Part shown: piece after piece, positions 4,003-60,533 of the stretch | Position numbering within the stretch: the first letter of the stretch is position 1 | Layout of the letters: each line of letters starts with the position of its first letter | From: Nitrospinota bacterium | GTDB lineage: Bacteria; Nitrospinota; Nitrospinia; UBA9942 | NCBI GenBank assembly: GCA_016194325.1 | Contig: JACQBS010000051.1 | Coordinates: 7,855 to 71,854 of the forward strand | Length of the DNA: 64,000 bases | Direction: 5' to 3' | Made by a program: the position numbers and the translations under genes | The notes under the pieces: model-generated | Told to the model about the DNA's origin: nothing | Database searches by the model: none | What the model saw: only the letters and a program-made list of their open reading frames with translations

Positions 4003-4290
4003 ATGAAACGAATGATTTTAATATTATGTTTCTGTATCCTGTTTTTAATTCTCCATATCCCGCTAATCCCGTTTTACAGCATAACGGGACAGGTCTATTC
4101 TGAGATAAAAAAACCTGCATTGGGGACAGAGATAAAACCTGATTGCAAGGAATGTCACAGCAGGAATGCGACGATAAGGGGGAGTGGAAAACCTGCTATA
4201 CCTGGCCAGCCTATGAAGGGGGATGGTAAACCTACCCCACCTCCAGACCACATCAGGAAAGATAAGAGGAAAAATAAAGGGCAGCAGTAA
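4003..4290 (+). CDS. Small secreted mono-haem (CXXCH) protein, hypothetical
   Basis: GGGAGG RBS 8 nt upstream of the ATG. Hydrophobic N-terminus MILILCFCILFLILHIPLI. Single CKECH motif. Lys/Pro-rich tail. Confidence 0.5.
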   Translation: MKRMILILCFCILFLILHIPLIPFYSITGQVYSEIKKPALGTEIKPDCKECHSRNATIRGSGKPAIPGQPMKGDGKPTPPPDHIRKDKRKNKGQQ

Positions 4291-4310
4291 ATAGGAAATT
4301 ATAAAAACTT

Positions 4311-5122: not shown

Positions 5123-5151
5123 TTTGTTCATGTATAGGAAATTATAAAATT

Positions 5152-5228
5152 AACCACAGGTGAACACAGGTAAACGCTGAAAATAAAAAAAATAAAATAA
5201 CTGTGTTAATCTGTGTTTATCTGTGGTT
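5152..5228 (+). repeat. Decamer-unit hairpin element (AACCACAG-GTGAACACAG / CTGTGTTTAT-CTGTGGTT), empty loop
   Basis: Left arm aaccacaggtgaacacaggtaaac; A-rich loop; right arm ctgtgttaatctgtgtttatctgtggtt. Preceded by the TAGGAAATTATAAAA box (5135..5150). Same family as 10908/11307 and 54092..54172. Confidence 0.85.
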
Positions 5229-5249
5229 TCATTAAGTTTTTGTTCTTTT

Positions 5250-17536: not shown

Positions 17537-17643
17537 GCCACGGAGACACGGAGGCACAGAGTTTTTAAAAGCGGTTTACACGGTTTGAACAGTTTAAACG
17601 GTTTAATCTGGTTTATATCTCTGTGTCTCTGTGACTCTGTGGC
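17537..17643 (+). repeat. Tandem-unit hairpin element, CACAGAG/CTCTGTG family with CGGTTTAAA-repeat loop (copy 2)
   Basis: Left arm gccacggagacacggaggcacagag; right arm tctctgtgtctctgtgactctgtggc, about 21/25 complementary. The loop aaaagcggtttacacggtttgaacagtttaaacggtttaatctggtt is homologous to the loop of 1715..1816. Confidence 0.85.
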
Positions 17644-36439: not shown

Positions 36440-39400
36440 ATGAACAGAAAAGAAATAGTGTTAGTGAATAGTGTCAGTGTCAGAAAGAAAATGCTTACAC
36501 TTACACTTACACTTACACTTACACTAATGCTTTCAGTTTATGCCTTTCCATGGAGTGAGCCGGTTATTATAGACTCAGGACCTTTCAATGCCTACAGGAC
36601 TGATATTGCATTTGACTCCAGGGGTAATGCCATAAGTGTATTTGAACAGAAGAGTGGTGATTTCTATAGAATATTTGCTAACAGATATGTCAATGGCAAG
36701 GGTTGGCAGGGGACGGTTACAATAGATGCTAATAGCGGTGATGCCTATAGGGCTCAGGTGGCATTAGATAAAGAAGGGAATGCTATGGCAGTATTCAAAC
36801 AAGCAAACAGGGTCTTTGCCAACCGATATATTTATAATGAGGGTTGGCAGGGGACTGTCCCTATTGATAATGGCACAGGTAATGTCGATGGGCAGGATAT
36901 AGTCTTTGACAGTGAGGGGAATGCTGCTGCAGTCTTTGAGGAGTATAATGGTAAGGAATTTGGAATATATGTAAATCTCTATTCTTCTACTGACACTAAT
37001 ACTAACACTGACACTTCTAAAAGTAGCTGGTCTGGGGCTTTCCGGATAGATACTGGTCATGGTAATGCCTTTTTCCCATATCCACTATTTGATGACAAAG
37101 GTAATCTTTATGTAATTTATTATAAGGAAGAGTCCAGTGGGCTGGAGGTTTATGTCAGCCGGTTACAGAAGCCAGAAGTTAGAAGCCAGAAGTTAGAAGC
37201 CAGAAGTCAGAAGATAACTTATGGAAACATAGTACACAAGAAAGAGAAATGGGTTGAAAAGAAAAGTGAAATAGGGAGAGGAATTAAGTCTGTATATAAT
37301 CCCATGTTTTTAAGTGAGCTCAAAAAGAGGATATATTCGGGGAACTACTCCTACTCCCGCTGGGAGACCCCTTCAAAAATAGATTCAAGGTTCAGAGATG
37401 CATACAGACCAACCCTTCTTGCTAATGGGAATGGAGAGGTAACTGCACTATTTGTAAAATGGGATGGCGAATATTTAAGTGGCTATATGGTTAGCCACAG
37501 AAATGGTAAATGGGGCAAAATAGAGGAGATTGATGCAGGGAAGGGTGATGTGGAGCATATAAGAGGTGCAGTAAATTTCAAAGGTGAAATGGCAGTCGTA
37601 TTTACACAGTGGGTGGATGATAAACAAGGGGCAAGGGGCAAGGGGCAAGGGGCAAGGGGTAATGAAAATTTAAGGATACATGCAAGGATATATTCCCCCT
37701 TAACAAAGGGGGATAGGGGGTTGTCTGGCTGGGGGGAGGCTAAAATCATAGACGGAGGTAAAAAAGATGCCTACAATCCAAGTATTATATTTACCAATAG
37801 TGGTGAAATTATTGCTGTCTGGTGTCAGTGGGAGAAAGCGAATGTTAAGTCATATACAAATATTTACAGAAATGGAATAGGGTGGGGAAATGCAGAACGG
37901 CTTGAGAATAAAGAGGGTGAGACCTGTGGTGTAAGGATTGCATCAGGATCGGATGGTAAGGTCATTGCTATATTTGAGCAGGATGGTGTTAATTCAGAAG
38001 CCAGAAGCCAGAAGATAGAAGTAGTAGCCGTTTCTGACGGCGATAAAGCAAGAAGCCTGCCCCTGCATGATGTAAGCAGGGGAATAAACAGGATATTTGC
38101 AGTGGAATTTAAAAACACTGACACTGTCACTAACACGGACACTTATACCGTAAGAAAGCTTACCAGTGGAGATAGGGAGGATTATTATGCGGAGTTCAGT
38201 CCTGATGGAAAAATGATTGTCTTTGTTTCAAAACATGGAAAATATTCTAATCTCTATATTATGGATGCGGATGGAAAGAACATGAGACAATTAACTTCCG
38301 GTGATGTAACTGATACAGCCCCTGTTTTTACACCTGATGGAGGAAAGATTATCTTTGCCTCAAACAGGATTGCTGAAGGATGGGATATCTGGTCTGTCCG
38401 CCCCGATGGCTCTGAGCTTACCCGTATTACAAAATGGAGCAGAAACGAATACTCTCCACATCCCACATCTGATGGTAAAGGTGTGCTCTATGTCTCTACT
38501 GCAGGTGGTGACCATGCCATCTGGAGTATGGATATAAATGGAGATAATCCGAGACGATTAACCTCAGGAGGAACAGGTGATTGGTTCCCTGCAATGAATC
38601 CGAATGGTAGAGAAATTGTCTTTGTAAGCACGAGGCTGGGATATGGCGATATATGGACGATAGATCCGGTGGAAAAGAAATATCATAGATTGACCTATTC
38701 TGACCTGCCAGAGTTTTCACCGGCATGGAGCCCTGATGGCTCAAAGATTGCCTATGTGACTAACAAAGGTGGGGAATTTGATATCTGGATTATGGATAGA
38801 GACGGAAAAAATAAGAAGAGGCTGACAAAAGGGATATCAGATAGAAATTGGGGAAATAGGTTCTCGGCGATTAAGATAATGGAGACCGCCGGGTATTATC
38901 ATCTCTCATGGCATCCTGACGGGACAAAAATCCTTTTTACAGAATGGGGGGATAATGAAAAAGAGAGCTGCATTTCAATACTTGATTTTGATAAGGCTAT
39001 TATAGATAGATTGGAAGCAGATGGAACATCTATCCCAGAGTATACCTTGATTGGAGAGGGGGAACTGACAAAAGGCGAATGGGAGGATTTTGCTCCCTCA
39101 TTTAGTCCTGATGGTATATCCCTCACCTTTTCATCCAACAGGAGCGGTAACTGGAATATATGGAGTATGGAATTTAATGGAGAAAACTTAAGGCAGCTTA
39201 CGGATGAGAAGGCTGATGCTCTTGCCCCTGTCTTCAGTCCCGACGGCAAAGAAATAGCCTTTTTGAGAAGCCAGAAGCCAGAAGTCAGAAGCCAGAAGGA
39301 TGAAACAAATTTTGAAAATCGTCAATCTTCAATCGTCAATCTTCAATATGATTTGTGGCTAATGAAAAGTGATGGGAGTGGTGCGAGGCAGGTTACAAAA

Positions 39401-42135: not shown

Positions 42136-44403
42136 ATGAACAGAAAAAAAATAGTGTCAGTGAACAGTGTCAGTGTCAGTAAAAAAAACAGTGTTAGCAA
42201 AAGGATACTAATACTGATACTAATACTGACACTAACACTGACACTTGAAGATGCCTTTGCGGACTCAAAGGGGAGACCCGACCACATGTCAAAGGAGATA
42301 ATAAAGACTAAAGAAGTAGTCCCTGTTCCTCCCGATATTCAGGTGCCTTACTCGGTCAAGAGGATTAGTGACGGCAGTTCCATTGATTACCATCCGGAGT
42401 TTAGCCATGATGGAAAACAGATTGTATTTATTAGAAAAATAGATAATGATGAAAATATGAAAAAGGGGGAATTCTGGCACAAGACACCTTATTCCCTGAA
42501 TCTATGGCTCATGGATTCAGATGGCAATAACAGAAGACAGTTAACATCAGGGGATGTGATGGACTTTGCTCCAAGGTTTACACCTGATGGAAAAAGGGTC
42601 ATTTTTGTCTCCAATCGCAGGGATGGCAGATGGGATATATGGTCAATAGATATTGATGGTTCAAACCTTAACAGAATTACAGAGACAGAAGGGAATACAG
42701 GGCTATGGGAAAGGTCACACTATCCTTTCCCTACGCCAGATGGTAAGGAGATGATTTTCGTAATCTATAAAAAATCCCACGGAAGTGTATGGCTTATGGA
42801 TATGAAAAGCAGAAATATAAGAAGAATAACTTCAGGGGGATTTGGAGATGACTTTCCGATGATGTCCCCTGATGGTAAAGAGATTGTCTTCAAAAGCACG
42901 AGACAGGGAAATGGAGATGTATGGTCAATAGATAGAACAGGAAAAAATTACAAAAGATTGACCTATGAGGATTACCCGGAATTTTACCCTGCATGGAGTC
43001 CGGATGGGACTAAAATATCCTATGTCACCAACAAAGGGGGTATCTTTGATATATGGATAATGAATAGGGATGGTAAACACAAAAAGAAGCTGACAAAATT
43101 CCTCTCGCAGGGGGCATGGGGAAAAAGGTTTGATTATAACGACCTTGTAGAGACCGGATATTATCATGTCTCATGGCATCCGGATGGAACAAAGCTTGCC
43201 CTGACCATCTGGGATCCTGATAAAAAAGAAAGTTATTTGACAACACTCGACTTTGGAAAGGATATTGGCAGGGTAATGGATAGCCTGCCTGATGAAAAGG
43301 AGACCCTTCCTGATTACACCCTTATTGGAGAGAAAGATATTACCGGCGGTGGAAGCTGGGATGATTTTGGACCATCTTTCAGCCCCGATGGAAAAACAAT
43401 AGCCTTTGCTTCTAATAGAAAGGGGAACTGGGATATCTGGAGTATCAGCGCAGAGGGTGAGGGATTGAAACAGATGACGGAGGACACTGGTAGTGAGCTT
43501 GCCCCCGTATTCAGTCCTGATGGTAAAGAGATAGCATTTTTAAAAGAAATTGGACAGGATATACAGGATGGACAGGAAAAAAATATAAATCCAGTAAATC
43601 CTGTTAATCCTGTCAAAAAATACTATTCATTATGGCTCATGAATAGTGATGGGAGTGGTGCAAGGCAGATTACTGAGGGTATTAAGGCTATATCTTATCC
43701 TGCATGGAATCCAGATAGTAAAGAGATTGCCTTTGTAGCAAAAGGAGATAAAGGTCCTGAGATACAATTAATCCCCCTTAATAAAGGGGGGCAGGAGGTT
43801 GTTACTGTGAGCCGTGTTATTTCTATATGGGACACAGAGAAGCCTAATCCTTCTATGTTTCCTTTTGCAAAGGATACAAAGGATGAGGAGTTTACTCCTG
43901 AGGAAATGGCAAAGATGAAAAAACTATTCCCGAATGCAAAAGTCGGGATGGGTGGATTGACCCCCTTTACAAAGGGTGAAACCATAGATGTTCCTTATCC
44001 ATTGAAAGAGTTTCTCTACCGTGTAGATTATAATGCCGCAGGTGACAAAATCATATTTGAGTCTAATAAAAGCGGGAATATAGATATATGGTCGGTAAAA
44101 AAAGATGGGACAGAGATGACTCGTATTACAAAAGAAAGTGGACCGCATCTAAATCCTGTCTTTAGCCCTGATAATAAAAGAATCGCCTATGCCCGCAGAA
44201 AATTGGAGTTAAGCTCATATAATGAAGTAAATTATAACATCTGGGTTGCCGATGCGCATACCGGTGAAGAAATGCCTATTAACGGTGAGGAGCAGACAGA
44301 CTGGAATCCTGCATGGAGTCCGGATGGAAAAAAAATCGCCTATGTTACTAATCGTTCAGGGGAATTTAAGCATTATAATATATGGATGCTGTATTTAAAA
44401 TAG
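42136..44403 (+). CDS. Secreted TolB-like PD40 beta-propeller repeat protein
   Basis: The leader is MNRKKIVSVNSVSVSKKNSVSKRILILILILTLTLTLEDAFA, followed by PD40 blades throughout. The tail is NRSGEFKHYNIWMLYLK. Confidence 0.85.
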   Translation: MNRKKIVSVNSVSVSKKNSVSKRILILILILTLTLTLEDAFADSKGRPDHMSKEIIKTKEVVPVPPDIQVPYSVKRISDGSSIDYHPEFSHDGKQIVFIRKIDNDENMKKGEFWHKTPYSLNLWLMDSDGNNRRQLTSGDVMDFAPRFTPDGKRVIFVSNRRDGRWDIWSIDIDGSNLNRITETEGNTGLWERSHYPFPTPDGKEMIFVIYKKSHGSVWLMDMKSRNIRRITSGGFGDDFPMMSPDGKEIVFKSTRQGNGDVWSIDRTGKNYKRLTYEDYPEFYPAWSPDGTKISYVTNKGGIFDIWIMNRDGKHKKKLTKFLSQGAWGKRFDYNDLVETGYYHVSWHPDGTKLALTIWDPDKKESYLTTLDFGKDIGRVMDSLPDEKETLPDYTLIGEKDITGGGSWDDFGPSFSPDGKTIAFASNRKGNWDIWSISAEGEGLKQMTEDTGSELAPVFSPDGKEIAFLKEIGQDIQDGQEKNINPVNPVNPVKKYYSLWLMNSDGSGARQITEGIKAISYPAWNPDSKEIAFVAKGDKGPEIQLIPLNKGGQEVVTVSRVISIWDTEKPNPSMFPFAKDTKDEEFTPEEMAKMKKLFPNAKVGMGGLTPFTKGETIDVPYPLKEFLYRVDYNAAGDKIIFESNKSGNIDIWSVKKDGTEMTRITKESGPHLNPVFSPDNKRIAYARRKLELSSYNEVNYNIWVADAHTGEEMPINGEEQTDWNPAWSPDGKKIAYVTNRSGEFKHYNIWMLYLK
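43552..43615 (+). repeat. Complete hairpin element inserted in frame in TolB-like paralogue 3 (GGACAGGAT / AATCCTGT units)
   Basis: Sequence: ggacaggatatacaggatggacagga-aaaaaatat-aaatccagtaaatcctgttaatcctgtc. The arms are reverse-complementary. It encodes GQDIQDGQEKNINPVNPVNPV at the same loop that carries other repeats in the three paralogues. Confidence 0.9.
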
Positions 44404-44460
44404 TGAAAGTGTAAGTGAAAGTGTAAGTGAAAAGAGTTAACTTACACTTACACTTGCACT
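44402..44460 (+). repeat. Intergenic hexamer/heptamer hairpin (AGTGTAAGTGAAAG / CTTACACTTACA) between TolB-like genes 3 and 4
   Basis: Sequence: agtgaaagtgtaagtgaaagtgtaagtgaaaag-agttaa-cttacacttacacttgcact. It overlaps stop codon 44401..44403 and ends 13 nt before ATG 44474. Confidence 0.85.
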
Positions 44461-44473
44461 ATAAGGAGGAGCC

Positions 44474-46636
44474 ATGAATAGAAAAAAAATAGTGAGGGGG
44501 TTAGTCCCCCTTAATAAAGGGGGATTGAGGGGGTTGTTGATTTCACTTACACTTTCACTTACACTTACACATGCACTTGCACAGGAGCTTCCATATACTG
44601 TCACTGATATCACTAATGGAGATACTGTAGATTTTCACCCTGAGTTCAGTCCGGATGGGAAGTATATTGTTTTTTCCTCCATGGCAGTGGACGGCAGCTA
44701 TTTCACTGATATGCACTTATGGATTATGGATGCTGATGGAAAGAACAGGCGGCGGATAACATCAAAGAGTGCGATGTATCTTCAGCCGACCTTCACTCCT
44801 GATGGGGAAAGGATTGTTTTTATTTCCAATATAGAGGGCGGCTCATGGGATATCTGGTCAATTAAAATTAACGGTTCAGGGCTTACTCGCCTGACGAGAG
44901 ATAATCAGAAAGAATACTTCCCTATTGTAACATCCGATAGTAAAAGTCTTGTTTTTATAAGAAGATATGGTGGAACAGACAGCGTGTGGACCATGGATAT
45001 TGATGGAAACAACATGAGGAGATTGAGTTCCGGAGGGAATGGAGACTCCTTTCCGGCGATTTGCCATGATGGAAAGGAGATTATTTTTTCTACCACTCGG
45101 CTTGGTAACAGCAATCTCTGGACGATAGACAGAGAAGGGAAAGAGTATAAGAGACTTACCTTTGAAGATACAATAGAGTTTTCACCCTCATGCAGCCCAG
45201 ATGGAGCTAAGATTGCTTATGTTGCTATAGAGGGAGGGGCAAAGACTTACAGTAAGGCACGGAAGGGGTTTGAGTTCAAAGAGATATCCTACAGGGAAAG
45301 GTCCTTTGATATATGGCTAATCAACAGAGATGGAAGTGGCAGAAGGCAGATTGCCAGAAATATATTTGAGGTAGGTCCAGGTATGAAGCTATTCAAGTCT
45401 GTAGATATTATAGAAGGAATCAACTACTACCACATCTCATGGCATCCCAGTGGTAAGAAGATTGCGTTGACCAGGTGGAATAAGGATAGACCGGGGAGTC
45501 GTATTAGCACTCTTGAATTTGATATGGACATTATTGAGAGACTGCCGGTTACAGAAACACCCGTTCCAGAGTATTCACTGCTCAGGGAAAAAGACCTCAC
45601 CGGTGGAAGTTGGGATGACCTTGCCCCGAGCTTTGCCCCTGATGGCAAAAGCATAGCCTTTGCCTCCAACAGGAGCGGCAACTGGGATATATGGAGACTT
45701 AGGATTGCGGATTGCGGATTGCGGATTGCGGATTGCAAATCAGAGTTTGATGATGCAAAGCTGGAACAGCTTACAAAAGGGGATGACTATGAGTTAGCAC
45801 CTGCATACAGCCCGGATGGGAAAGAGATAGCATTTTTGAGAAGACAGAAGCCTGCCCTGAGCAGAGCCGAAGGGACAGAAGACAGACTTCAATACGATAT
45901 ATGGCTCATGAATAGTGATGGGAGCAACGCAAGGCAAATTACAAAAGGTGTACCTGTTCTTTCCTATCCTGCATGGAATCCTGATGGGAAAGAGATTGTT
46001 TTTATATCGGAAGGGAATGGATATGCTCCAGAGATATGGGGATACAGCATCGCTGAAAGCAGCCTTAAAAAGATTACGGTCATAAAGGATGCTTCTGTCC
46101 TCGCCTCCAGATTAAACTTGTCCCCGCAAGCTTTAAGCGGGGATAATAAAACGAAGATTGGCCTCATCGCCGACCAGCGATATCCGGATGCCTCCAATCC
46201 TCTATCAATCGGTGCAGGCGGTATTTATCCTTATAATGAATTCCTTTATCGTATAAATTATAGCCCTCGCGGTGACAGAATCATCTTTGAATTGGATAGA
46301 AATGGCAGTGTAGGTATCTGGAATGTCAATAGTGATGGCAATAGTCTCGCCCGTGTTCTGACAGATGATTTACTCCGCTGGACTCCGACATTCAGTCCTG
46401 ACGGCAGAAAGATAGCCTATTCTAAAAAGGCTGATAAACAGTTTGCCCCGATATACTGGACAGATTACAATATCTGGATAACCGATGCTGAGAGCGGTGA
46501 AGAGATGAGGATTAACGGTGAAGAACAGATAGACTGGTTTCCCTCATGGAGTCCAGATGGAAGAAAAATCGCCTATGTTACTAATCGCTCAGGAGATTTT
46601 AAGCATTTTAATATATGGCTGCTGTATTTGAAATAG
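44474..46636 (+). CDS. Secreted TolB-like PD40 beta-propeller repeat protein
   Basis: The leader MNRKKIVRGLVPLNKGGLRGLLISLTLSLTLTHALA contains the G5/C5 palindrome element. PD40 blades follow. The tail is NRSGDFKHFNIWLLYLK. Confidence 0.85.
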   Translation: MNRKKIVRGLVPLNKGGLRGLLISLTLSLTLTHALAQELPYTVTDITNGDTVDFHPEFSPDGKYIVFSSMAVDGSYFTDMHLWIMDADGKNRRRITSKSAMYLQPTFTPDGERIVFISNIEGGSWDIWSIKINGSGLTRLTRDNQKEYFPIVTSDSKSLVFIRRYGGTDSVWTMDIDGNNMRRLSSGGNGDSFPAICHDGKEIIFSTTRLGNSNLWTIDREGKEYKRLTFEDTIEFSPSCSPDGAKIAYVAIEGGAKTYSKARKGFEFKEISYRERSFDIWLINRDGSGRRQIARNIFEVGPGMKLFKSVDIIEGINYYHISWHPSGKKIALTRWNKDRPGSRISTLEFDMDIIERLPVTETPVPEYSLLREKDLTGGSWDDLAPSFAPDGKSIAFASNRSGNWDIWRLRIADCGLRIADCKSEFDDAKLEQLTKGDDYELAPAYSPDGKEIAFLRRQKPALSRAEGTEDRLQYDIWLMNSDGSNARQITKGVPVLSYPAWNPDGKEIVFISEGNGYAPEIWGYSIAESSLKKITVIKDASVLASRLNLSPQALSGDNKTKIGLIADQRYPDASNPLSIGAGGIYPYNEFLYRINYSPRGDRIIFELDRNGSVGIWNVNSDGNSLARVLTDDLLRWTPTFSPDGRKIAYSKKADKQFAPIYWTDYNIWITDAESGEEMRINGEEQIDWFPSWSPDGRKIAYVTNRSGDFKHFNIWLLYLK
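45702..45736 (+). repeat. In-frame perfect (GGATTGC)5 heptamer tandem repeat
   Basis: ggattgc x5 (35 nt) encodes LRIADCGLRIADC. It replaces the SxxxDGEG turn that is conserved in the other three paralogues (NWDIWSIGADGEGVKQLT). Confidence 0.95.
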
Positions 46637-46649: not shown

Positions 46650-47607
<958 letters not shown>

Positions 47608-50378: not shown

Positions 50379-50440
50379 GAGAGTCAAAGAGAGACTGAAT
50401 TGGTTAAGGTTTTGACTATTTGATATTTATTCTTTCGGCT

Positions 50441-51355
50441 ATGAAGAAATATGGAATACTTTTAGTGATATTTTTTTTCTACTCCATTTCCCCGCAGGTT
50501 GTAAGCGGAGAAGATATGGTTTTTGTCAAAGGCGGGTGTTTTCAGATGGGAGATACTTTTGGAGATGCAGAGAGTAAAAATAGAGAGAGCAAAGAAAAAC
50601 CTGTGCATAAGGAAGGTGACGAAAAGCCTGTGCATGAGGTATGTGTGGATGATTTTTATATAGGGAAGTATGAAGTAACAGTGGGTGAGTTCAGGGAATT
50701 TTTAAATACTACAGGATACATGACGGAAGATGAAATTGGAGATGGCTGTTTTGTCTTTGTAGGAAGAGAATGGAAAAAGGACAAAAGCAGGAATTGGCGT
50801 AATCCTGGTTTTTTACAGGATGATACTCATCCAGTATGCTGTGTATCATGGAATGATGCTGTAGCTTATGCTGAGTGGTTTTCAGGTAAGCTTGCCCCTG
50901 CAGGCAGTAAGCAGGGGACAGGCTTGTCCTCGCAAGCTATAAGCGGGGAAAAGAGGTATCGTCTGCCAACAGAGGCGGAGTGGGAGTATGCGGCAAGGAG
51001 CGGAGGGAAAAGGGAGAAATATTCTGGTGGTAACGATTTAGACAGTGTAGCGTGGTATGCTAACAACTCAGGCAGTAAAACCCATCCGGTAGGACAGAAA
51101 AATCCAAATGTATTGGGATTATATGACATGACAGGGAATCTATGGGAATGGTGTTCAGACTGGTATGATGAGAAATATTACAGTAATAGTCCAAAGGATA
51201 ATCCTAAAGGTGCTGTTAGCGGAATTTATCATGTTTTGCGCGGCGGTTCATGGTACAATGTTTCGCATCGCTTAGGAACTTTTGTCCGCGCCCAGCGCGA
51301 GCCTGAGAAGCGGGCTGACGGCAGTGGGTTTCGGCTTGCAGCCTCCGTGAAATAA
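50441..51355 (+). CDS. Secreted FGE-sulfatase-fold protein (second subfamily) with tandem stem-loop insertion
   Basis: The signal peptide is MKKYGILLVIFFFYSISPQVVSG. Motifs: MVFVKGGCFQMGD, FYIGKYEVTVGEFREFLNTTGY, HPVCCVSWNDAVAYAEWFS, YRLPTEAEWEYAARSGG, GLYDMTGNLWEWCSDWY, LRGGSW, GFRLA. Relative to the paralogue at 47608, the insert GKLAPAGSKQGTGLSSQAISGEK is extra. Confidence 0.8.
   Translation: MKKYGILLVIFFFYSISPQVVSGEDMVFVKGGCFQMGDTFGDAESKNRESKEKPVHKEGDEKPVHEVCVDDFYIGKYEVTVGEFREFLNTTGYMTEDEIGDGCFVFVGREWKKDKSRNWRNPGFLQDDTHPVCCVSWNDAVAYAEWFSGKLAPAGSKQGTGLSSQAISGEKRYRLPTEAEWEYAARSGGKREKYSGGNDLDSVAWYANNSGSKTHPVGQKNPNVLGLYDMTGNLWEWCSDWYDEKYYSNSPKDNPKGAVSGIYHVLRGGSWYNVSHRLGTFVRAQREPEKRADGSGFRLAASVK
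50891..50949 (+). repeat. Two adjacent copies of the 27-nt stem-loop element CTTGYCCYYGCA-N7-GCRGGGA, in frame in the CDS
   Basis: The two copies are cttgcccctgcaggcagtaagcagggga (50891..50918) and cttgtcctcgcaagctataagcgggga (50923..50949), with stems cccctgc/gcagggg and tcctcgc/gcgggga. Other copies lie at 38056..38083, 46117..46143, 53578..53604 and 54839..54865. Confidence 0.9.
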
Positions 51356-51422
51356 GAGTCAAAGAGTTAAAGTGTCAGAGAGTCAGGGCTTTGATACTTT
51401 GATACTCTGATACTTTGACACT
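51355..51422 (+). repeat. Intergenic octamer hairpin (AGTCAAAG/CTTTGATA) downstream of FGE-like gene
   Basis: Sequence: agagtcaaagagttaaagtgtcagagagtcag-gg-ctttgatactttgatactctgatactttgacact. It starts at the stop codon of 50441..51355. Confidence 0.85.
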
Positions 51423-51445: not shown

Positions 51446-53947
51446 ATGCAAAAGTTTCCGGACACTTATAAAATACATGTCCTCGAATGTTTTTATCTGG
51501 GATTGGTGCTGTTTTTTGCTATTACGATTATCTCAAGCCCTCTCCTTGCCTCTGAAATGCCTGCCCCTGAACGATTTAATCAGGGGGCTGAAATATTTGT
51601 ACAGATGGGGCATTCAGGTTCGGTTCTCTCTGTAGCATTTTCTCCTGATGGACAATATGTATTATCCGGTGGTAAGGATAAAATCCTCATACTATGGGAA
51701 GCATCCACAGGCAGGGAGATACGTAAATTTGAAGGACATACTAATAATGATATCAATTCAGTTGCCTTCAGCCCTGATGGAAGAACTCTGGCTTCAGGAA
51801 GCAGGGATAAAACCATAATCCTCTGGGATATTGAAACAGGAAATGCCATAAAGATACTCAAAGGACATATTGCTTCTGTAAGATCAGTCGCCTTTAGTCC
51901 TGATGGAAAACTTCTCGCATCAGGCAGTTGGGATAAGACTATAATCTTGTGGGATATTGAAACCGGCAGCGCCATAAAAACACTTACAGGACATAATGAC
52001 TATATTGATTCGGTTGCCTTTAGTCCCGATGGAAAGACTCTCGCATCGGGAAGTCAGGATAAAACTATCAGACTATGGGAAGTATCTACAGGTAAGGAGC
52101 TCCGGAGATTTGAAGGACATACCGGTCATGTCAAATCAGTTGCCTTCAGTCATGATGGAAAGATTCTCGCATCAGGGATTGATAAAACCGTAACTCTCTG
52201 GGATATTGAAACAGGCAGTGCTATAAAGACACTTAAAGGACATACTGATATAGTTTTGTCGGTTGCCCTTAGTCCTGATGGAAAAGTTCTCGCATCGGGA
52301 AGTTTTGATAAAACCATAATCCTCTGGGATATTGAAACAGGCAGTGCCATAAAGACACTCAAAGGACATACTGACTATATCGGTTCAGTTGCCTTAAATC
52401 CTGATGGAAAGACTCTGGCGTCAGGGGGGTTTGATGATGCCATAATCCTCTGGGATGTGGAAACAGGCAGTGCCAAAAAGACACTAAAAGGGTATACTTT
52501 TTATGCCAAATCAATAGCCTTCAGTCATGATGGAAGGATTCTGGCATCAGAGAGCTATGACACTATAATCCTCTGGGATATAGCAGCAGGGAGTGCCATA
52601 AAAACACTAAAAGGACATAATGAATGGGTCTCTGCAATAACCTTTAGTCCTGATGGAAGGGTTCTCGCATCAGGGGGCTGGGATAACACCATAATCCTCT
52701 GGGATGTGGCAAAAGGGAGTGCCATAAAGACGTTCAAGGGACATACTTCATGGGTCAAATCAGTTGCTTTTAGTCCTGATGGAAAGACTCTGGTATCTGT
52801 TGGTCAGGATAATGCTATAATCTTGTGGGATGTGGCAGCAGGCAATGCTATAAAAACACTAAAAGGACATTGGGTCAAATCAGTTGCTTTTAATCCTGAT
52901 GGAAGAAGCATAGCAACAGGGGGTGATTACAATGTAACCCTCTGGGATATTGCAACAGGTAATGTGATAAAGACTTTCACAGGACATACTGATTGGGTTG
53001 TACCTGTTACCTTTAGCCCTGATGGAAAGACTCTGGCATCAGGGAGTGTTGATAAAAACGTAATCCTATGGGATGTGGCAGCAGGGAGTGCCATAAAGAC
53101 ACTAAAAGGACATACAAGTAATGTCGTAACAGTTACCTTTAGCCCTGATGGAAAGACTCTGGCATCAGGGAGTGTTGATAAAAACGTAATCCTATGGGAT
53201 GTGGCAGCAGGCAGAGCCTTGAAAACACTTATAGGACATAATGATATACTCCTGTCAGTTGCCTTCAGTCCTGATGGAAAATTTCTGGTATCAGGGAGTG
53301 GCGATGGCACGAGCAGATGCTGGGATATAAATAGAGGCAGGGAGATTGCACAGTTTATAAGTTTCAGAGATGCTGAGTGGATTGTGATTACGCCTGAAGG
53401 CTATTACAATTCCTCTGCAAATGGTGATAAGCTTCTGAATGTAAGGATTGGCAATAATGTGCATGGAATGGACCGGTTTCGCTCGGTATTCTATAAACCT
53501 CAGATTGTGGAGACTGCATTAAGACTTGGCGATACACAGAAAGCTATTTCAGAAGTTATTGGAGAACAAAAAGCGGACTTGTCCTCGCATGTATTAAGCG
53601 GGGAATTGCCCGCTATTTCTACTATTCAGAATATAGAGCCTCCGTTTATTACAATTAAATCCCCTGAAGATGGGAAAAAGATTGTCTCAACAGATGCTGA
53701 AATCTCTATTTATATTGAGGAGAGGAATAAGACAATAAAAAGCGTAAAGGTCTTTATAAATAGAAAACTTGTAACATCTTCTGATGAAGGGATTGGTGTT
53801 AAGATTGCAGGTGTTATCCCTGAAAAGGAAAAGACTCTAAATTTAAAAATCCCTGTCCATTTGGATATTGGAGAGAATTTAATTGAGGTAACAGCATTTA
53901 ATGGTTTTTCAGAGGGGAGAAAATCTATACGCATTTATGTTGAATAA
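51446..53947 (+). CDS. WD40-repeat protein (about 14 blades) with N-terminal hydrophobic signal/anchor and C-terminal non-WD domain
   Basis: About 14 canonical WD40 units (GH...V.SVAFSPDGK.LASGS.DKTIILWD...G..IKTLKGH). The N-terminus is YLGLVLFFAITIISSPLLA. The C-terminal ~220 aa (EWIVITPEGYYNSSANGDKLLNVRIGN...) is non-WD. An 80-bp perfect internal repeat lies at 53006..53085 and 53132..53211. Confidence 0.9.
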   Translation: MQKFPDTYKIHVLECFYLGLVLFFAITIISSPLLASEMPAPERFNQGAEIFVQMGHSGSVLSVAFSPDGQYVLSGGKDKILILWEASTGREIRKFEGHTNNDINSVAFSPDGRTLASGSRDKTIILWDIETGNAIKILKGHIASVRSVAFSPDGKLLASGSWDKTIILWDIETGSAIKTLTGHNDYIDSVAFSPDGKTLASGSQDKTIRLWEVSTGKELRRFEGHTGHVKSVAFSHDGKILASGIDKTVTLWDIETGSAIKTLKGHTDIVLSVALSPDGKVLASGSFDKTIILWDIETGSAIKTLKGHTDYIGSVALNPDGKTLASGGFDDAIILWDVETGSAKKTLKGYTFYAKSIAFSHDGRILASESYDTIILWDIAAGSAIKTLKGHNEWVSAITFSPDGRVLASGGWDNTIILWDVAKGSAIKTFKGHTSWVKSVAFSPDGKTLVSVGQDNAIILWDVAAGNAIKTLKGHWVKSVAFNPDGRSIATGGDYNVTLWDIATGNVIKTFTGHTDWVVPVTFSPDGKTLASGSVDKNVILWDVAAGSAIKTLKGHTSNVVTVTFSPDGKTLASGSVDKNVILWDVAAGRALKTLIGHNDILLSVAFSPDGKFLVSGSGDGTSRCWDINRGREIAQFISFRDAEWIVITPEGYYNSSANGDKLLNVRIGNNVHGMDRFRSVFYKPQIVETALRLGDTQKAISEVIGEQKADLSSHVLSGELPAISTIQNIEPPFITIKSPEDGKKIVSTDAEISIYIEERNKTIKSVKVFINRKLVTSSDEGIGVKIAGVIPEKEKTLNLKIPVHLDIGENLIEVTAFNGFSEGRKSIRIYVE

Positions 53948-54091: not shown

Positions 54092-54172
54092 AACCACAGA
54101 TAAACACAGATGGACGCAGATATTTTTTAAAATCTTTTTTCTATCTGTGTTTATCCGTGTTCATCTGTGGTT
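54092..54172 (+). repeat. Decamer-unit hairpin element (AACCACAGATAAACACAG family), empty loop
   Basis: The left arm aaccacagataaacacagatggacgcagata and the right arm tatctgtgtttatccgtgttcatctgtggtt are 26/31 complementary, with a 19-nt AT loop. It is followed by the reverse complement of the AGGAAATTATAAAA box (54175..54189). Confidence 0.9.
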
Positions 54173-54787: not shown

Positions 54788-56686
54788 ATGATTTACTACC
54801 TACAGATATTTTTTCTTTTATTGTTTCCGCAGATATTACTTGTCCCTGCAAGTTTTAGGCAGGGAAATGCGGCAGAACTTCTGCCATCACTAAAGGCTTC
54901 ATCTCATGCTGAAATTGAAGAGGTTCGGATTCCTTTGAGTGAATATCAGTATCAAAATGCCCTCTATCTTTATCTTACAGGTGACTATCTCTCATCATCA
55001 ATATTGAGCAGTAACATTATAAATAATCCCTCTAAAATTAAGGATAAGGCAATTCTTCTCCTGAAGCAATCAGATATAAACAGATTGTCTAAAATGAGAG
55101 AGTATCCCATGTTTTCATTTCAATCCTTTCCTAAGGAAATATCTGAGAGAGTGAAATTATTGGATGTTATTTACGAAATGAGTGAATATGAGAGGTTGTT
55201 TTTGAGTAAAGAGCTGGATAATTTAGAGACTGCAAACTATTTTGAGGGAATTAGCCTTTTAAGGCTGAATAGGTTAACTGATTCAAAAAGACTTCTATTG
55301 CAGATTTCAAGAGATAATAAGCTTTATCCATATGCCAGAATTTCCATTGCCCAGATAGAGGTAATGAAACAGAATTATGAAGAGGCAGAGAATATATTAA
55401 GAGATATCCTCAATCATCCTGTCATAGAAAAAGAGAATCTCTCCGAAAGAATTCATCTCTTGCTCGGGCAGGTTTTATTTGAAATGGGGTCTTACTCCAA
55501 TGCCTTGAATGAGTTTTTATCGGTATCACAAAAGAGTCAATTTTATAGGGAAGCCATTATCGGACAGGCATGGAGTCTTATAAAGCTGGGTTATTATGAA
55601 AATGCAATCCCCATCCTTAAGGTAATAAAACCTCTCCCTCCGTATAATCATGAAGATCAGGAGATTCAGATAGTCTTAGGCTACTGTTATCTTAAGACAG
55701 GCATGATTAAGGAAGCTGCTGAACATTTCCAATTTTTATCAAATGTATATTCAGAGACAGAGGGCAGATTGAAACAGATAATCAGTGATAAAACTATAAG
55801 AAGACAGTATATTTCCAATCTTATTGAGAGAAACTCAGTATCTTTGAGTGATGAGGAACGTTACTACCTTTCGGAGTTACACAGAAATCCGAATCTATCT
55901 GACATTGTAGAGGAATACAAGCTTCTGAATATATTAAGGAACGGCTTTTTAAGAAAAAAAGAAAAGGTTATTAATAAAGAGATTTATGTTGATAACATAA
56001 TAAGATGGATGGAGGATATGCAGAGGAAGATAGGGGAAGATATAGAGTATGTTAAAAACAGTCTGCTTACTATAAGTGGAACGGAAGGAAAAAATAAAGA
56101 GATACTCTTGTTAAAAGGGGTTGAGATAGCCAAAAATCAAATACTAAATGACTACTGGCAGAAAACAGTAAAACACCAGATGACTGAGACTGAAAAAAAG
56201 ATTGTTGAAGCTATTCTCCATGAAGCTGTAGAGGGAATGGGATGTCTTGATTCTCCTGTAACATGCCCTATTTATAGCCATGTAATAGACAGGGGAGTTA
56301 AAATGGTTAAATATGATAAATTAGAAGATTTAAAGAGGATAGTGCTGGTAATTGAGAAGTTTGGAAGGGATATAGATAAGATAAAGAAGAAAGATAAGAT
56401 AGAATTTGAGAATGCTTTATCAAGGGTGATGCCAATCTTTGAGAAGAGGATAGGTAAGGGACGAGAAGACCTGAAGGAACTGGGAATGATAAAGGAGAGG
56501 CTCAATAAGGATATAATAGATACAGAGAGGGCATTGGATGAGACGATGAATAGACTGGATAACCATGTGGCAGAAAGGCTTGCAAAAATAAAATTTGAGC
56601 TTGCAGATTTTAAGGGTGATATTATTGCAGGAATGGATAGTGCAAAAATGAGTGCTGAAAAGGCGGCAAAAGATAAAGGAAAGTAA
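54788..56686 (+). CDS. Secreted TPR-like / coiled-coil protein
   Basis: The signal-like N-terminus is MIYYLQIFFLLLFPQILLVPA. There are several TPR-like helical pairs (YFEGISLLRLNRLTDSKRLL, LLLGQVLFEMGSYSNALNEFLSV, AIIGQAWSLIKLGYYENAIPIL, LGYCYLKTGMIKEAAEHF). The C-terminal third is K/E-rich and coiled-coil-like. Confidence 0.6.
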   Translation: MIYYLQIFFLLLFPQILLVPASFRQGNAAELLPSLKASSHAEIEEVRIPLSEYQYQNALYLYLTGDYLSSSILSSNIINNPSKIKDKAILLLKQSDINRLSKMREYPMFSFQSFPKEISERVKLLDVIYEMSEYERLFLSKELDNLETANYFEGISLLRLNRLTDSKRLLLQISRDNKLYPYARISIAQIEVMKQNYEEAENILRDILNHPVIEKENLSERIHLLLGQVLFEMGSYSNALNEFLSVSQKSQFYREAIIGQAWSLIKLGYYENAIPILKVIKPLPPYNHEDQEIQIVLGYCYLKTGMIKEAAEHFQFLSNVYSETEGRLKQIISDKTIRRQYISNLIERNSVSLSDEERYYLSELHRNPNLSDIVEEYKLLNILRNGFLRKKEKVINKEIYVDNIIRWMEDMQRKIGEDIEYVKNSLLTISGTEGKNKEILLLKGVEIAKNQILNDYWQKTVKHQMTETEKKIVEAILHEAVEGMGCLDSPVTCPIYSHVIDRGVKMVKYDKLEDLKRIVLVIEKFGRDIDKIKKKDKIEFENALSRVMPIFEKRIGKGREDLKELGMIKERLNKDIIDTERALDETMNRLDNHVAERLAKIKFELADFKGDIIAGMDSAKMSAEKAAKDKGK

Positions 56687-56770: not shown

Positions 56771-59560
56771 ATGTGTATAAAGTTTATTTACATATTAATT
56801 CTCATATTTCTTATCTCCTCCTGTAAAACAATGGAAGGGAGAAAGACAGAGAAATCTGCTATTAATCTTAATGAGACTTCTTCAGAAAAGAGATTTTTAA
56901 AGGAACGGATAAAAGAGTGGGAAGATTATATGAATCTTACAGGGCATAAAGACCTTTCACTTGATACAATTTTAAGGCTTACAGAAGGTTATCTTGAGGC
57001 AAAAGATATTTTGTATAAAAAAGATATGGAGGAATATGAGAAGGCACTGGCTGCTGAGAAAGGTTCGTTAAAAGAAGAGATTCGGCAGCCTGAACAGGAT
57101 TATAGCTCCATTATAAGACATTTCAGGATTCTATCGGATGAGTACCGCTACAGAAAGGGTGCGGATGCAGTCCACTATGCCCTTGGTTATGCCCTCTACG
57201 AGCAGGGGGAAAGGGATGAGGCTGTAAAGGTATTTGAGGGGATTATAAAAAACTATCCCCAGAGTATCTATCTGCCAGAGGTAAATTTCAGGCTTGGTGA
57301 GTTTTATTTTGAGACGGGACAGATGGGGGAAGCAAGAGACTCATATAGGAGGGTGTTAAATTACCCTCAGTCTATATTTTATGACAAGGCAGTATATAAA
57401 CTTGGCTGGGTCTATTATAAAATTGATGATTTTAAAAATGCATCGGATTTATTCATGTCACTAATAGATAGGACATGGGAAGGTAAGTTTAAGGAAGCAG
57501 GGTTAACTGATGATTCTGTCTCTTGTCTTGTAATGAGCTTAACCCATTTTAATAAGATAGATGAGGCTGTGGAATATCTGCAATCTAAGGGGGTAAGGGG
57601 ATATGCAACATTAGTATTAGAAAAGATTGGCGAGGTGCTTACACAGGAGACAAGATATGAAAATGCCATATATGTTTACGATTCTCTGATAAAAAATTTC
57701 CCTGACAATCCAAATATCCCGTTTATGTATGAAAAAATGGCTGCTCTCCTTGAAGTTAATGGGGATAAAGAAACCGCTATTGCTAAAAGGGAGATACTGG
57801 CACACCAGTATAATTACACAACAGCATGGTACAAGAAAAACCATCCGGACGGTTCAGAGAAGATTGATAGTCTCATTTTCAGAACGATTGTTGATGTGTC
57901 TAAGGAATATCATTTGAAAGGGAAAAGTGAGGCTAACATAAAGTATCTGCAGAGTGCAATTGATGGTTATCGTAATTTTTTATTGCTCTTTCCTAAGTCT
58001 CAAAATTATAAGGAGATAAATCTTTTGCTTGCAGAGGCACTGTTTGATGCCGGGACATATAATGAGGCAGCTATGGAATATGAAAAAACTGCCAAACTCT
58101 ATCAGGAAACTTTAAAAAGAGGGGATATAGCCTATTCCGCCTTCTTGACTCATGCAGTAATCTTTAATAAGTCTGAAGGTGACAGGAGGGCGGTTATAAA
58201 CAATGCAGCTCGTATATTGGAGGCATACGAAAAAGATTTTTCTTTGAGCGGTAAGCTGGAGAAGGCACACTACACAATATCTGATATGTATGCCCGGATA
58301 AAGGCATACGATAAGGCAAGGGATATCATTATGCCACTGACAAAGGGGAAGGATTTTGCCAATGCCTATAAGAGGATTGCTGAACTTTATCTTGAAGAGG
58401 GCAACCTTGGTTCCTCTGAAGATATATATTCAAAGTTGTTCTCTACATCAAAAGACCCCGAGCTGCAGGAAATTCTTGCAAAACTCCGCTACAGGCTTGG
58501 TGATGAATATCTGAAGGCTGGCAAGCTGAATGAGGCGGTTGAGAAATTTAATTCAGCATTTACAGTTTATCCTGATTCCGATATTGGAGAGGGTTCCCTG
58601 ATGAAGATAGGACATATTCATATTCAGAGAAAAAACATAAGTGGCATTAGAGATGTGGTTGGACGAATGGCGAAGGCATATCCAAACTCATCCGGGTCTC
58701 TATCCCTCCTTGTAGAGGCAGGACAGCAGATAGAAAATGATGAGCCCTTGAAGGCTGCAATGCTTTATGAGGAGGCATCCTCTATAACATCTGATTCTAA
58801 AAATATTCAGAAACTATTATTTGCGGCAGGTATAATATATGAAAAAAACAAGGAATACAATAAGGCGGTAGAGGTATTTAAAAAATGTTTATTAAAAAAT
58901 GAAATACCACCTGATAGAGAGGCGGAAGCGAGATACAGGTTAGGTTATTCACAAATTAAATTGGGTAAAAAAGAAGAGGGTATGGAAACCTTTAGCAGGT
59001 TAAAAGAGCGGAGCGGGCAAACAGACAATATTTTTGTTGCAAAGGCAGAGTTTTTAATTTTAAAGGAGAGGATAAATGTGTATTTAGATATGAAGATTAC
59101 ACAGCCCTTTGAAGAAACACTAAGTAAAAAGACCGAACTTTTAAATCACCTTATTAAAGACTATTCTGATATGGCAAGGTATAAAATGCCGGAGCTTCTG
59201 ACCGAGATGTTTTTTTCAATGGGGATTGCCCTTGAGAATTTCAGGGATTCCATCCTTCATTCTGAAAGACCATCAGATTTAACAAAAGAAGAACTTGAGG
59301 AGTATAGCTTCCTGCTGGAAGAAAAGGCATATCCCTATGATGAAAAGGCTGTCAGGGTATATGAAAACAGCCTGCAGATTAGCAGGGAATATAAGGTGTA
59401 TAACGAATGGATGCGAAAGGGTCTGGAAAGACTCGTAAATCTTAGACCCGCACTATATAAAAGGGGATTTGCATTTAAAGATGTAAAACCTGTTTTTATA
59501 TATCCCGAGCCTGTAATGATGGAGGCAGGTCATGCTGAGCAGAGATACAGTAAAAATTAG
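56771..59560 (+). CDS. Large TPR-repeat outer-envelope lipoprotein (YbgF/BamD-like TPR units)
   Basis: Lipobox LILIFLISSC. There are multiple TPR units, for example AVHYALGYALYEQGERDEAVKVFEGIIKNYPQSIYLPEVNFRLGEFYFETGQMGEARDSYRRVLNYPQSIFYDKAVYKLGWVYYKIDDFKNA. Confidence 0.75.
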   Translation: MCIKFIYILILIFLISSCKTMEGRKTEKSAINLNETSSEKRFLKERIKEWEDYMNLTGHKDLSLDTILRLTEGYLEAKDILYKKDMEEYEKALAAEKGSLKEEIRQPEQDYSSIIRHFRILSDEYRYRKGADAVHYALGYALYEQGERDEAVKVFEGIIKNYPQSIYLPEVNFRLGEFYFETGQMGEARDSYRRVLNYPQSIFYDKAVYKLGWVYYKIDDFKNASDLFMSLIDRTWEGKFKEAGLTDDSVSCLVMSLTHFNKIDEAVEYLQSKGVRGYATLVLEKIGEVLTQETRYENAIYVYDSLIKNFPDNPNIPFMYEKMAALLEVNGDKETAIAKREILAHQYNYTTAWYKKNHPDGSEKIDSLIFRTIVDVSKEYHLKGKSEANIKYLQSAIDGYRNFLLLFPKSQNYKEINLLLAEALFDAGTYNEAAMEYEKTAKLYQETLKRGDIAYSAFLTHAVIFNKSEGDRRAVINNAARILEAYEKDFSLSGKLEKAHYTISDMYARIKAYDKARDIIMPLTKGKDFANAYKRIAELYLEEGNLGSSEDIYSKLFSTSKDPELQEILAKLRYRLGDEYLKAGKLNEAVEKFNSAFTVYPDSDIGEGSLMKIGHIHIQRKNISGIRDVVGRMAKAYPNSSGSLSLLVEAGQQIENDEPLKAAMLYEEASSITSDSKNIQKLLFAAGIIYEKNKEYNKAVEVFKKCLLKNEIPPDREAEARYRLGYSQIKLGKKEEGMETFSRLKERSGQTDNIFVAKAEFLILKERINVYLDMKITQPFEETLSKKTELLNHLIKDYSDMARYKMPELLTEMFFSMGIALENFRDSILHSERPSDLTKEELEEYSFLLEEKAYPYDEKAVRVYENSLQISREYKVYNEWMRKGLERLVNLRPALYKRGFAFKDVKPVFIYPEPVMMEAGHAEQRYSKN

Positions 59561-60533
59561 TCAAGTTGGCTCAGCCAAGAAACTTGTCCCGTTATGTCTT
59601 AAAACGGGATGGGCATGCGGCACTCTTTTCTTTATTCTATTATTTTTAACAGGATGTGTAACTAATCAGAAGGAGGGATATTCGCTAAAAAATAGGATTC
59701 GTGCTGAATCAGAGGCATTGGTAAAAAAACAGCAGGATGATGAAAGGCAAAGGAAGGCAATAGTACTATTCAATAACGGATTTCAGCTTATAAATAATGA
59801 TCCGATAGGTGCAAATGCACTTTATCGTGAGGGCATAATACTTATGCCGGAGAGATGGGAGGCTTATTATAATCTCGGCATTACTTATATGAAGCTTTAC
59901 GACCACGAGAGGGCAATAAAGGAATTCTCTAATGCGTTAAAATACAATGCACCACAATCTAAGGTGTATAATGCCATTGGAGTAACATACCAATCTATGG
60001 GAAGAAACGGAGATGCAATAAAGTATTTTAAAAAGGCACTCTCTTTAGAAAAGTCGCCAATTGTAATTATGAATATTGCAAACATTTATCAGGATATGGG
60101 GCAGAAAGAGGAATCAATAAAGCTCTATCATCAGATTGAGTTTGTAGATATTTCAAAATTACCCCTTCATAATAACATAGGCAGTCTGAAATATAAGATG
60201 GGCGATTTTAAAGGTGCCAGGGATGAGTTTAATATGGCGTTAGAAAAAGAAGGGGAAAATATACAGGTGCTTTATTATCAGGCACAGACTCTTCTGATGC
60301 TTGAAGAATATGAGAATGCCTTGAATGTTTATAAGAAAATAGCAGCCAAAAACTCTGCTGACCCTGAGCCTTACAGAAATATGGGTATAATATATGAGAT
60401 TTATCTTGGAGATATGGCAAGTGCATATGAGAATTATACTGCGTATATAAAAAACGGAGGAGAGAAGACTAAGGATATGGAATCATGGATAGAGGTGGTA
60501 AAGGTGAAAATGGTAAAGAAGGAGGGGCAATGA
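59532..60533 (+). CDS. TPR-repeat lipoprotein
   Basis: Lipobox LLFLTGC. TPR units: AYYNLGITYMKLYDHERAIKEFSNALKYNP.., VYNAIGVTYQSMGRNGDAIKYFKKALSLE, NIANIYQDMGQKEESIKLY, and others. It overlaps the upstream gene by 29 nt and the downstream start by ATGA. Confidence 0.7.
   Translation: MLSRDTVKISQVGSAKKLVPLCLKTGWACGTLFFILLFLTGCVTNQKEGYSLKNRIRAESEALVKKQQDDERQRKAIVLFNNGFQLINNDPIGANALYREGIILMPERWEAYYNLGITYMKLYDHERAIKEFSNALKYNAPQSKVYNAIGVTYQSMGRNGDAIKYFKKALSLEKSPIVIMNIANIYQDMGQKEESIKLYHQIEFVDISKLPLHNNIGSLKYKMGDFKGARDEFNMALEKEGENIQVLYYQAQTLLMLEEYENALNVYKKIAAKNSADPEPYRNMGIIYEIYLGDMASAYENYTAYIKNGGEKTKDMESWIEVVKVKMVKKEGQ

Follow-up and report, generated by a model that had tools for sequence, protein, structure and literature searches.

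A 27-nucleotide hairpin inserted in genes of a Nitrospinota bacterium and dispersed across many phyla, probably a miniature mobile element of REP type

Repetitive extragenic palindromes (REPs) are defined as palindromic stem-loop units of 20–40 bp or 21–65 nt (PMC3733652, PMC6006769), and have in common with the ends of IS200/IS605 elements a tetranucleotide lying 5' of a short hairpin (PMC6006769). REPs are described as species-specific (PMC6006769), and their occurrence within genes is documented, as is that of the Rickettsia palindromic elements (RPEs) (PMC3733652). The CGTC-1 family of REPs includes Neisseria dRS3 and Rickettsia RPE-6, with both RPE-4 and RPE-6 classed as CGTC REPs (PMC3733652), and the CGTC REPs are without a known transposase (Di Nocera et al. 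2013, PMC3733652). Here, we describe a 27-nt hairpin, element X, found in a 64,000-nt stretch of DNA from a Nitrospinota bacterium (assembly GCA_016194325.1, contig JACQBS010000051.1, positions 7,855 to 71,854; the whole stretch is called the window below). We consider it likely that X is a miniature mobile DNA hairpin of REP type, which an enzyme acting in trans probably moves in single-stranded form. Small palindromic repeats in frame in genes are a known kind of sequence; the family, its conservation across phyla and its clean insertion sites are new. Rfam gave no match in the window at gathering thresholds and only chance-level matches in E-value mode (window and a composite locus). Literature searches by sequence fragments and peptide words returned unrelated work only, the literature on intragenic palindromes being concerned with REPs, RPEs and miniature inverted-repeat transposable elements and not with X, and neither 'CTTG' nor 'CCTG' occurs in the REP classification paper (PMC3733652).

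In X, a tag of 4 nt precedes a 7-bp stem that closes a loop of 9 nt; the consensus is (AAG) followed by CYTG-YCCCYGC-ANGYNKTAR-GCRGGGR. An earlier reading of the letters and open reading frames (ORFs), made without database searches and here called the sequence-only reading, had listed six copies on the plus strand; all six are present where it placed them, and domain hits bear out the hosts it named, namely two PD40/TolB-like proteins, a formylglycine-generating enzyme (FGE)-sulfatase protein, a WD40 protein and a TPR protein. Its written pattern, GCA-N7-GCR, was wrong in its spacing, which is N8, and has no literal match; the corrected pattern has five exact matches in the window against 0.00 expected from shuffles, with the sixth copy (38056) starting with CCTG. 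A covariance model built from the six copies, as that reading had proposed, was run unfiltered over the window and yielded five more (Table 1), so that pattern and model together give 11 copies per 64 kb against none expected. One of the added copies is on the minus strand, and the claim that all copies lie on the plus strand therefore holds for the six and fails overall.

The claim that the stems are kept by compensatory change has stood up well. In the six listed copies all 42 of 42 stem cells are paired (100%), with double-sided changes at two positions, and each copy is predicted to fold as single-stranded DNA into a hairpin of −4.9 to −8.3 kcal/mol (z −2.2 to −3.9); the added copies contribute the compensated stems CCCCTGA/TCAGGGG once and TCCCGTT/AACGGGA twice. 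Among the matches listed from a scan of other genomes, described below, are 121 distinct copies, in which conservation is limited to positions −3 to 27. Stem pairs 5–27 and 9–23 had been left untied by the search pattern and are hence informative on covariation: they are complementary in 113 and 117 of the 121 copies respectively (Fisher p about 1e-26 and 3e-29), a covariation that partly reflects two subfamilies, CCTG-CCCCTGC and CTTG-TCCCYGC. The tag CYTG is invariant at positions 1, 3 and 4 by design of the search, with copies found by the covariance model carrying CCTG, CTTG, CATG or CATT. Directly upstream stands AAG or AAA in 60 of the 121, and G occupies position −1 in 94. Guide-target pairing between the tag and the sequence upstream of it is doubtful: 40 of 44 CTTG copies have A at −2, but so do 43 of 77 CCTG copies. 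In some copies of X the first 8 nt (CTTGCCCC) are the same as GGGGCAAG in reverse complement.

How X enters a gene can be seen by comparing the window with its relatives: L041, a Nitrospinota metagenome-assembled genome (MAG; JACRGN01) that is 97–99.7% identical, and L122/L123, a more distant syntenic relative. The comparison with orthologues lacking the element, which the sequence-only reading had called for, proved feasible: six window copies are net nine-codon insertions against their orthologues and three of these are resolved to the nucleotide as exactly 27 nt. Entry is discrete and exact, with X directly 3' of AAG, AGG or AAA, no target-site duplication at any of the three resolved sites and no microhomology on the 3' side of the X boundaries. 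In the FGE gene, the empty site of the L122 orthologue (P0006) reads ..TCAAATAAG/ACAGGTAAAAGG.., that is, ..AAG/ACAGGT.., and in P0003 and P0002 AAG and ACAGGT are separated by exactly 27 nt (CTTGCCC...GGGR); this X1 site, empty in L122, is filled in L120 and L124. The FGE gene of the window has X1 and, after ACAGG, a second 27-nt unit (X2) that is absent from the X1-only P0002 and P0003; to judge from these sequences, X2 was inserted later than X1. The two lie 5 nt apart and are the only tandem pair in the window. By comparison with the solved structure of human FGE, in which WAGK/RLPTEAEWEY is contiguous, the window protein has 24 additional residues at this point. The same loop holds a different, palindrome-derived insert in other orthologues, and is thus a hot spot. 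Inserts of the 'PLNKGGQG' type at the X loop of FGE-host orthologues may derive from a palindrome like CCCCCTTAATAAAGGGGG, which is itself a second palindromic repeat of the window (17002, 37695, 43773, 44506, 47043 and 48596; six copies against 0.01 expected, all within ORFs).

For the fourth TolB-like gene, the empty site joins AGATTAAA to TAAGAAAAC (in the L122 orthologue, AGATTAAA followed by TAA..) and the filled site reads AGATTAAA, 27 nt, TAATAAAAC; all three copies in the WD40 gene match nine-residue gaps in the L122 orthologue. An example of the peptide predicted across an X insert is ..WFSGKLAPAGSKQGTGLSSQAISGEKRYR... Because the syntenic 20-kb region of L122 has no copy of X, the element has expanded in the lineage of the window, and the expansion is specific to this Nitrospinota lineage. 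Even between the window and L041, X content differs at homologous cassettes despite their identity. Whole repeat cassettes are also swapped between these two, amid flanking DNA of that same identity, in PD40 blades and gene starts (43541-43633, 45851-45887, 42148-42255 and 44433-44544), for example (GCCAGAA)n+X+(TCTTCAA)n in one against (GGACAGGAT)3...(ATCCTGTNA)3 in the other.

Beyond the window, one genome per species was scanned with a pattern of 38 bits, which found at least 124 copies in at least 119 contigs, against about 4 chance matches by our own arithmetic; a census at chance frequency or without stem covariation, either of which would have told against the sequence-only reading, was not what emerged. 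The 121 further copies come from over 80 genomes; among the matches listed, some MAGs carry X on several of their contigs. Those matches span Nitrospinota, Nitrospirota, Thermodesulfobacteriota and other 'Deltaproteobacteria', several orders of Planctomycetota, Methylomirabilis, Omnitrophota, Latescibacterota, Elusimicrobia, Tectimicrobiota, Calditrichaceae, Gemmatimonas, Gamma- and Betaproteobacteria and one ANME-1 archaeal bin, with the reservation that assignments based on a single contig may include binning errors. The ANME-1 copy is on a contig (L004) binned as a Methanophagales archaeon and is flanked by (TGTGTTC)n repeats. A viral origin of X was rejected, as there are only two matches in the 2.9 million viral contigs of IMG/VR (L125 and L126). 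In other genomes X appears to be mostly intergenic, being depleted from long open frames (31% of listed copies are within frames of at least 200 codons against 74% of random sites), and it occurs in both orientations.

The same element, in many phyla, occupies genes, the loops of other hairpins and heptamer arrays. An outer hairpin with a perfect stem of 6 bp or more encloses 45 of 130 listed copies in its loop, compared with about 2% of controls, and X there always comes right after ..AAG. Most outer hairpins have the form cGTC-ATTCCCGC-GAAR-(X)-GCGGGAAT-CCAg of the CGTC-1 REP family: the stem has 8 bp and begins with AT, the loop has 4 nt, and the tag (CGTC or TGTC) and the CCA tail are likewise characteristic of that family; hairpins of this type host X in at least 33 loci. 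Other outer hairpins are reversed, with a 9-nt loop, GGATTCCCGC-TAAAG-(X)-ACAT-GCGGGAATGAC, and X again follows AAG. Within heptamer arrays, for example (GGGCAAG)n, (GGTCAAG)n and (GCCAGAA)n, X keeps the phase of the array and comes after ..CAAG or ..GAAG. In low-GC groundwater MAGs, translations place X in frame in LigA, LysRS, LeuRS, MtnA, TldD, a Mur ligase, RibD, a Xer recombinase and DnaX. One such LigA has about 23 extra residues between IPLKL and IPARLEVRGEV relative to E. coli LigA (2owo). The mapped sites are, in FGE and LigA, a loop that separates conserved motifs, as well as N-terminal signal-peptide-like regions. Heptamer arrays are themselves in frame in housekeeping genes with or without X (L085, LigA; L052, TldD; L051, L092, L098 and L119), where (GGTCAAG)n and (GGGCAAG)n arrays of low-GC groundwater MAGs yield 'QGSRVKG'-like peptide repeats.

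It is a hallmark of Y1 HUH enzymes acting on single-stranded DNA, such as those of IS608 and ISDra2, that they insert 3' of a short sequence with no duplication and recognise a hairpin together with a guide. By analogy with such enzymes (IS200/IS605 TnpA, and TnpA-REP or REP-associated tyrosine transposase, RAYT), X would move as single-stranded DNA, its hairpin and 5' tag being recognised by a trans-acting enzyme, and insertion would favour DNA exposed for a time as a single strand, for instance in hairpin loops, in slipped repeats and on the lagging-strand template. The search for such an enzyme covered all ORFs of the 119 X loci (8-kb pieces) by a motif screen and a hidden Markov model screen, and found Y1_Tnp only in L012 and L078, of one Pirellulales MAG with three Y1_Tnp (IS200-like) genes (two in L012 at 4119-6079; one in L078 at 1037-1594). 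Each of the two in L012 is bracketed by inverted GGTTAG-tagged hairpins in the manner of a REPtron, with X within 0.5–1 kb. In L095 and L049 the genes between inverted pairs of X are ordinary ones, namely flagellar genes and a major facilitator superfamily transporter.

Several observations weigh against a mobile hairpin moved in trans. Firstly, a transposase was not found among the genes of the 64-kb window, Y1_Tnp genes near X are restricted to that single Pirellulales genome among the 119 loci, and those in L012 are flanked by the GGTTAG-tagged hairpins, not by X. Secondly, the preference for a preceding AAG is not absolute within the window. Thirdly, copies inside one genome are as diverse as copies from different phyla, unlike a recent burst from a single master, and X is nearly the same in at least 12 phyla, whereas REPs are species-specific. 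Finally, in the listed loci the bias towards the locally G-rich strand (54 versus 34) and the co-orientation with local ORFs (51 versus 28) are both modest; such orientation biases cannot separate replication from transcription.

A sister family, TGTC-A-TTCCCGC-ATGNNTTWA-GCGGGAA-T-CCA (L003, L081, L099, L102, L108 and L110-L112), is CGTC-tagged and has a 9-nt loop consensus in common with X, and this common loop suggests a shared recognition factor. It is tempting to suppose that one widespread enzyme inserts both X and its CGTC-tagged, 9-nt-loop sisters 3' of AAG in single-stranded DNA; we advance this only tentatively and would sooner expect it to fail than to hold. If true, it would explain the spread of the CGTC-type REPs for which no transposase is known.

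An enzyme may not be required at all. X could have spread by template switching or gene conversion, with its hairpin kept by quasi-palindrome correction and not by selection, a plausible route in a window full of slippage-prone tandem and inverted repeats and with cassettes replaced between close strains. Microhomology is on offer, as AAGC inside X (positions 19–22) echoes the preceding AAG, and the failure to find a transposase is in keeping with such a route. However, identical and exact 27-nt boundaries recur at unrelated sites that offer no 3' microhomology, the element is present in more than 80 genomes of many phyla, and its unpaired tag and loop bases are conserved although template switching would not maintain them, so that we think this route unlikely.

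We give slightly less credence still to the proposal that X is a functional mRNA structure under selection, be it a site for an RNase or RNA-binding protein or an element of stability or translational pausing. Loop and stem pairing are conserved, the general view of REPs is that they function as RNA elements downstream of genes (PMC3733652), and intragenic copies are mostly sense: 10 of 11 in the window, where 10 to 11 of the 11 are inside ORFs, and 26 against 13 antisense among listed copies in ORFs of at least 200 codons elsewhere. Set against this are the antisense and intergenic copies in either orientation, the copies inside other DNA repeats, the absence of X at orthologous sites of the syntenic relative and its variation between near-identical strains, as well as the lack of an Rfam family. 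Nor is its position relative to gene features fixed, with copies in the window irregularly placed in the N-terminal, middle and C-terminal parts of genes. What the evidence amounts to is propagation by insertion together with purifying selection against the frame containing a stop, not selection for a hairpin function in mRNA.

That purifying selection is read from the frames. The six listed copies start at codon position 1 in two cases and at codon position 3 in four, and the ten sense genic copies of the window use the three frames in the ratio 5:5:0, as the sequence-only reading had anticipated in speaking of two frames. The unused frame reads TAA in the loop and, as it is never used, X must be translated and filtered by selection. 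Indirectly, this shows that genic insertions survive as nine-residue additions in two stop-free frames, because 27 nt make nine codons and TAA is present in only one sense frame. A peptide module (a linker or signal-peptide end) selected as protein might be imagined from the similar peptides of one frame (LSPQALSGD, LSSQAISGE and LSSHVLSGE) and from the signal-peptide-like, hydrophobic N-terminal stretches that hold or end at copies 50485, 51476 and 54839 and just precede 51560, but two frames giving unrelated peptides in equal numbers, antisense and intergenic copies, a DNA consensus extending over synonymous positions and covariation that tracks base pairing and not codons effectively refute it. 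The argument that selection or propagation acts on a nucleic-acid hairpin thereby gains support from two frames, both orientations and intergenic copies, covariation, the limits at −3 and 27, and discrete nine-codon insertions.

Three further candidates were considered and rejected. A diversity-generating retroelement, for which FGE-type domains are typical targets, is contradicted by copies outside the C-terminal variable region and by the lack of a reverse transcriptase or template repeat; a CRISPR repeat, suggested by a stem like that of type I-E repeats, by dispersed copies without an array and by the occurrence of other stems; and translational bypass or splicing of the insert by the avoidance of the stop-containing frame, which implies translation.

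Table 1. Copies of element X in the window (sequence given as tag-stem-loop-stem; offset, the reading-frame offset of the copy; source, whether listed by the sequence-only reading or added by the covariance model)
Feature	Position	Strand	Source	Sequence	Host and context
X copy	4067..4093	-	added	CCTG-TCCCGTT-ATGCTGTAA-AACGGGA	Antisense within short plus-strand ORF 4004-4291
X copy	38056..38082	+	listed	CCTG-CCCCTGC-ATGATGTAA-GCAGGGG	TolB-like gene 36440-39985; offset 2 (SLPLHDVSRG); AAG precedes
Probable decayed X remnant	45845..45882	+	weak model match only	CCTGCCCTGAGCAGAGCCGAAGGG	Heptamer cassette of TolB-like gene 4
X copy	46117..46143	+	listed	CTTG-TCCCCGC-AAGCTTTAA-GCGGGGA	TolB-like gene 44474-46636; offset 2 (LSPQALSGD); exact 27-nt insertion relative to L122 orthologue
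Degenerate X	50485..50511	+	added	CATT-TCCCCGC-AGGTTGTAA-GCGGAGA	One stem mismatch; end of FGE signal peptide (SISPQVVSGE); offset 2
X1	50891..50917	+	listed	CTTG-CCCCTGC-AGGCAGTAA-GCAGGGG	FGE gene 50420-51355; offset 0 (LAPAGSKQG); exact 27-nt insertion after AAG
X2	50923..50949	+	listed	CTTG-TCCTCGC-AAGCTATAA-GCGGGGA	Same FGE loop as X1; offset 2 (LSSQAISGE); after ACAGG
Degenerate X	51476..51502	+	added	CATG-TCCTCGA-ATGTTTTTA-TCTGGGA	WD40 gene N-terminus; offset 0; 9-aa insertion HVLECFYLG relative to L122 orthologue
X copy	51560..51586	+	added	CCTG-CCCCTGA-ACGATTTAA-TCAGGGG	Compensated A-T stem end; WD40 gene; offset 0; 9-aa insertion APERFNQGA relative to L122
X copy	53578..53604	+	listed	CTTG-TCCTCGC-ATGTATTAA-GCGGGGA	WD40 gene 51446-53947; offset 2 (LSSHVLSGE); net +9 aa relative to L122, exact boundary ambiguous
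X copy	54839..54865	+	listed	CTTG-TCCCTGC-AAGTTTTAG-GCAGGGA	Residue 18 of TPR ORF 54788-56686; offset 0 (LVPASFRQG)
X copy	59583..59609	+	added	CTTG-TCCCGTT-ATGTCTTAA-AACGGGA	Three compensated stem pairs; residue 18 of TPR ORF 59532-60533; offset 0

The genes of the window between 1606 and 35665 include a type II secretion system ATPase, several multihaem cytochromes, a PKD/NHL protein and a 5498-residue LamG-repeat protein, the giant 16.5-kb gene of which was searched with the rest of the window and has no copy of X; downstream lie four TolB-like genes, several FGE-like genes and two rhodanese genes, on a single strand. Read by eye, the short ORF 4004-4291 (+) starts in the manner of a signal peptide and has the haem-binding motif CKECH. 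The window is dense in 6–10-nt tandem repeats arranged as inverted pairs, such as (CACGGAGA)3-(CGGTTTAAA)5-(TCTCTGTG)3, with 133 TRF rows and examples at 1721-1815, 17539-17641, 43553-43613, 46664-46730, 51354-51422 and 54095-54169; these repeats lie in intergenic DNA and in ORF 5' ends or linkers. CTCTGTG motifs like these window repeats flank X in Planctomycetota contigs.

Were one widespread enzyme shown to insert X and its CGTC-tagged sisters, X would rank as the smallest mobile unit of bacteria whose insertion sites are resolved to the nucleotide, and one able to remodel essential proteins across at least 12 phyla. The spread of REP-type hairpins has long been inferred, not seen, and the clean and nested sites described here give testable predictions for both enzyme and mechanism. 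A nine-codon element with two stop-free frames can scatter peptide inserts in essential genes such as those for LigA and aminoacyl-tRNA synthetases, and both annotators and builders of protein families working with groundwater or sediment genomes should expect X inserts. For a REP it is out of the ordinary to be nearly identical in distant phyla, as X is, and this poses a question of horizontal transfer.

Compared with the systems set out at the beginning, X resembles REPs and the REPIN-RAYT system in being a small dispersed hairpin of REP size, with an unpaired tetranucleotide at its 5' foot and compensated stem variants. Outside the window it appears, like them, to be mostly intergenic with some genic copies, including those in DNA ligase and tRNA synthetase genes; it also sits in CGTC-1 loops (cGTC-ATTCCCGC-GAAR-GCGGGAAT-CCA) and has its loop consensus in common with the CGTC-tagged sister. 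It differs in its tag, CYTG, which is none of the GTAG/CGTC superfamily tags (GTAG or CGTC, TGTC, CCTC), and from the CGTC-1 family in a 7-bp YCCCYGC stem that does not start with AT, a conserved 9-nt loop in place of the 2–5 nt usual in REPs and no conserved CCA tail. The inserted entity is a single unit and not a REP doublet, and no RAYT flanked by X, as in a REPtron, was found in the window or the 8-kb pieces of the X loci. Neisseria dRS3 (ATTCCC-N8-GGGAAT) is a CGTC-1 REP, the same kind of hairpin that hosts X, and is a known target for the insertion of other mobile DNA, either phages or IS110-type elements, although the entities inserted there are not a 27-nt hairpin. With IS200/IS605 elements X has in common a hairpin with a 4-nt guide 5' of its foot, integration on the 3' side of a specific short sequence with no target-site duplication, and a preference for targets prone to be single-stranded; in those elements the two subterminal hairpins differ from each other, and as a rule the element either contains tnpA/tnpB or derives from it, whereas X is one hairpin with no linked gene. 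Among the RPEs, RPE-1 is much longer, at about 100–150 bp, and is restricted to Rickettsia, whereas X is 27 nt long, crosses phyla and is unrelated in sequence; the likeness to RPEs is one of behaviour, in that both are palindromic, selfish DNA inserted in frame in genes, essential ones included, absent from orthologues and tolerated as extra peptide.

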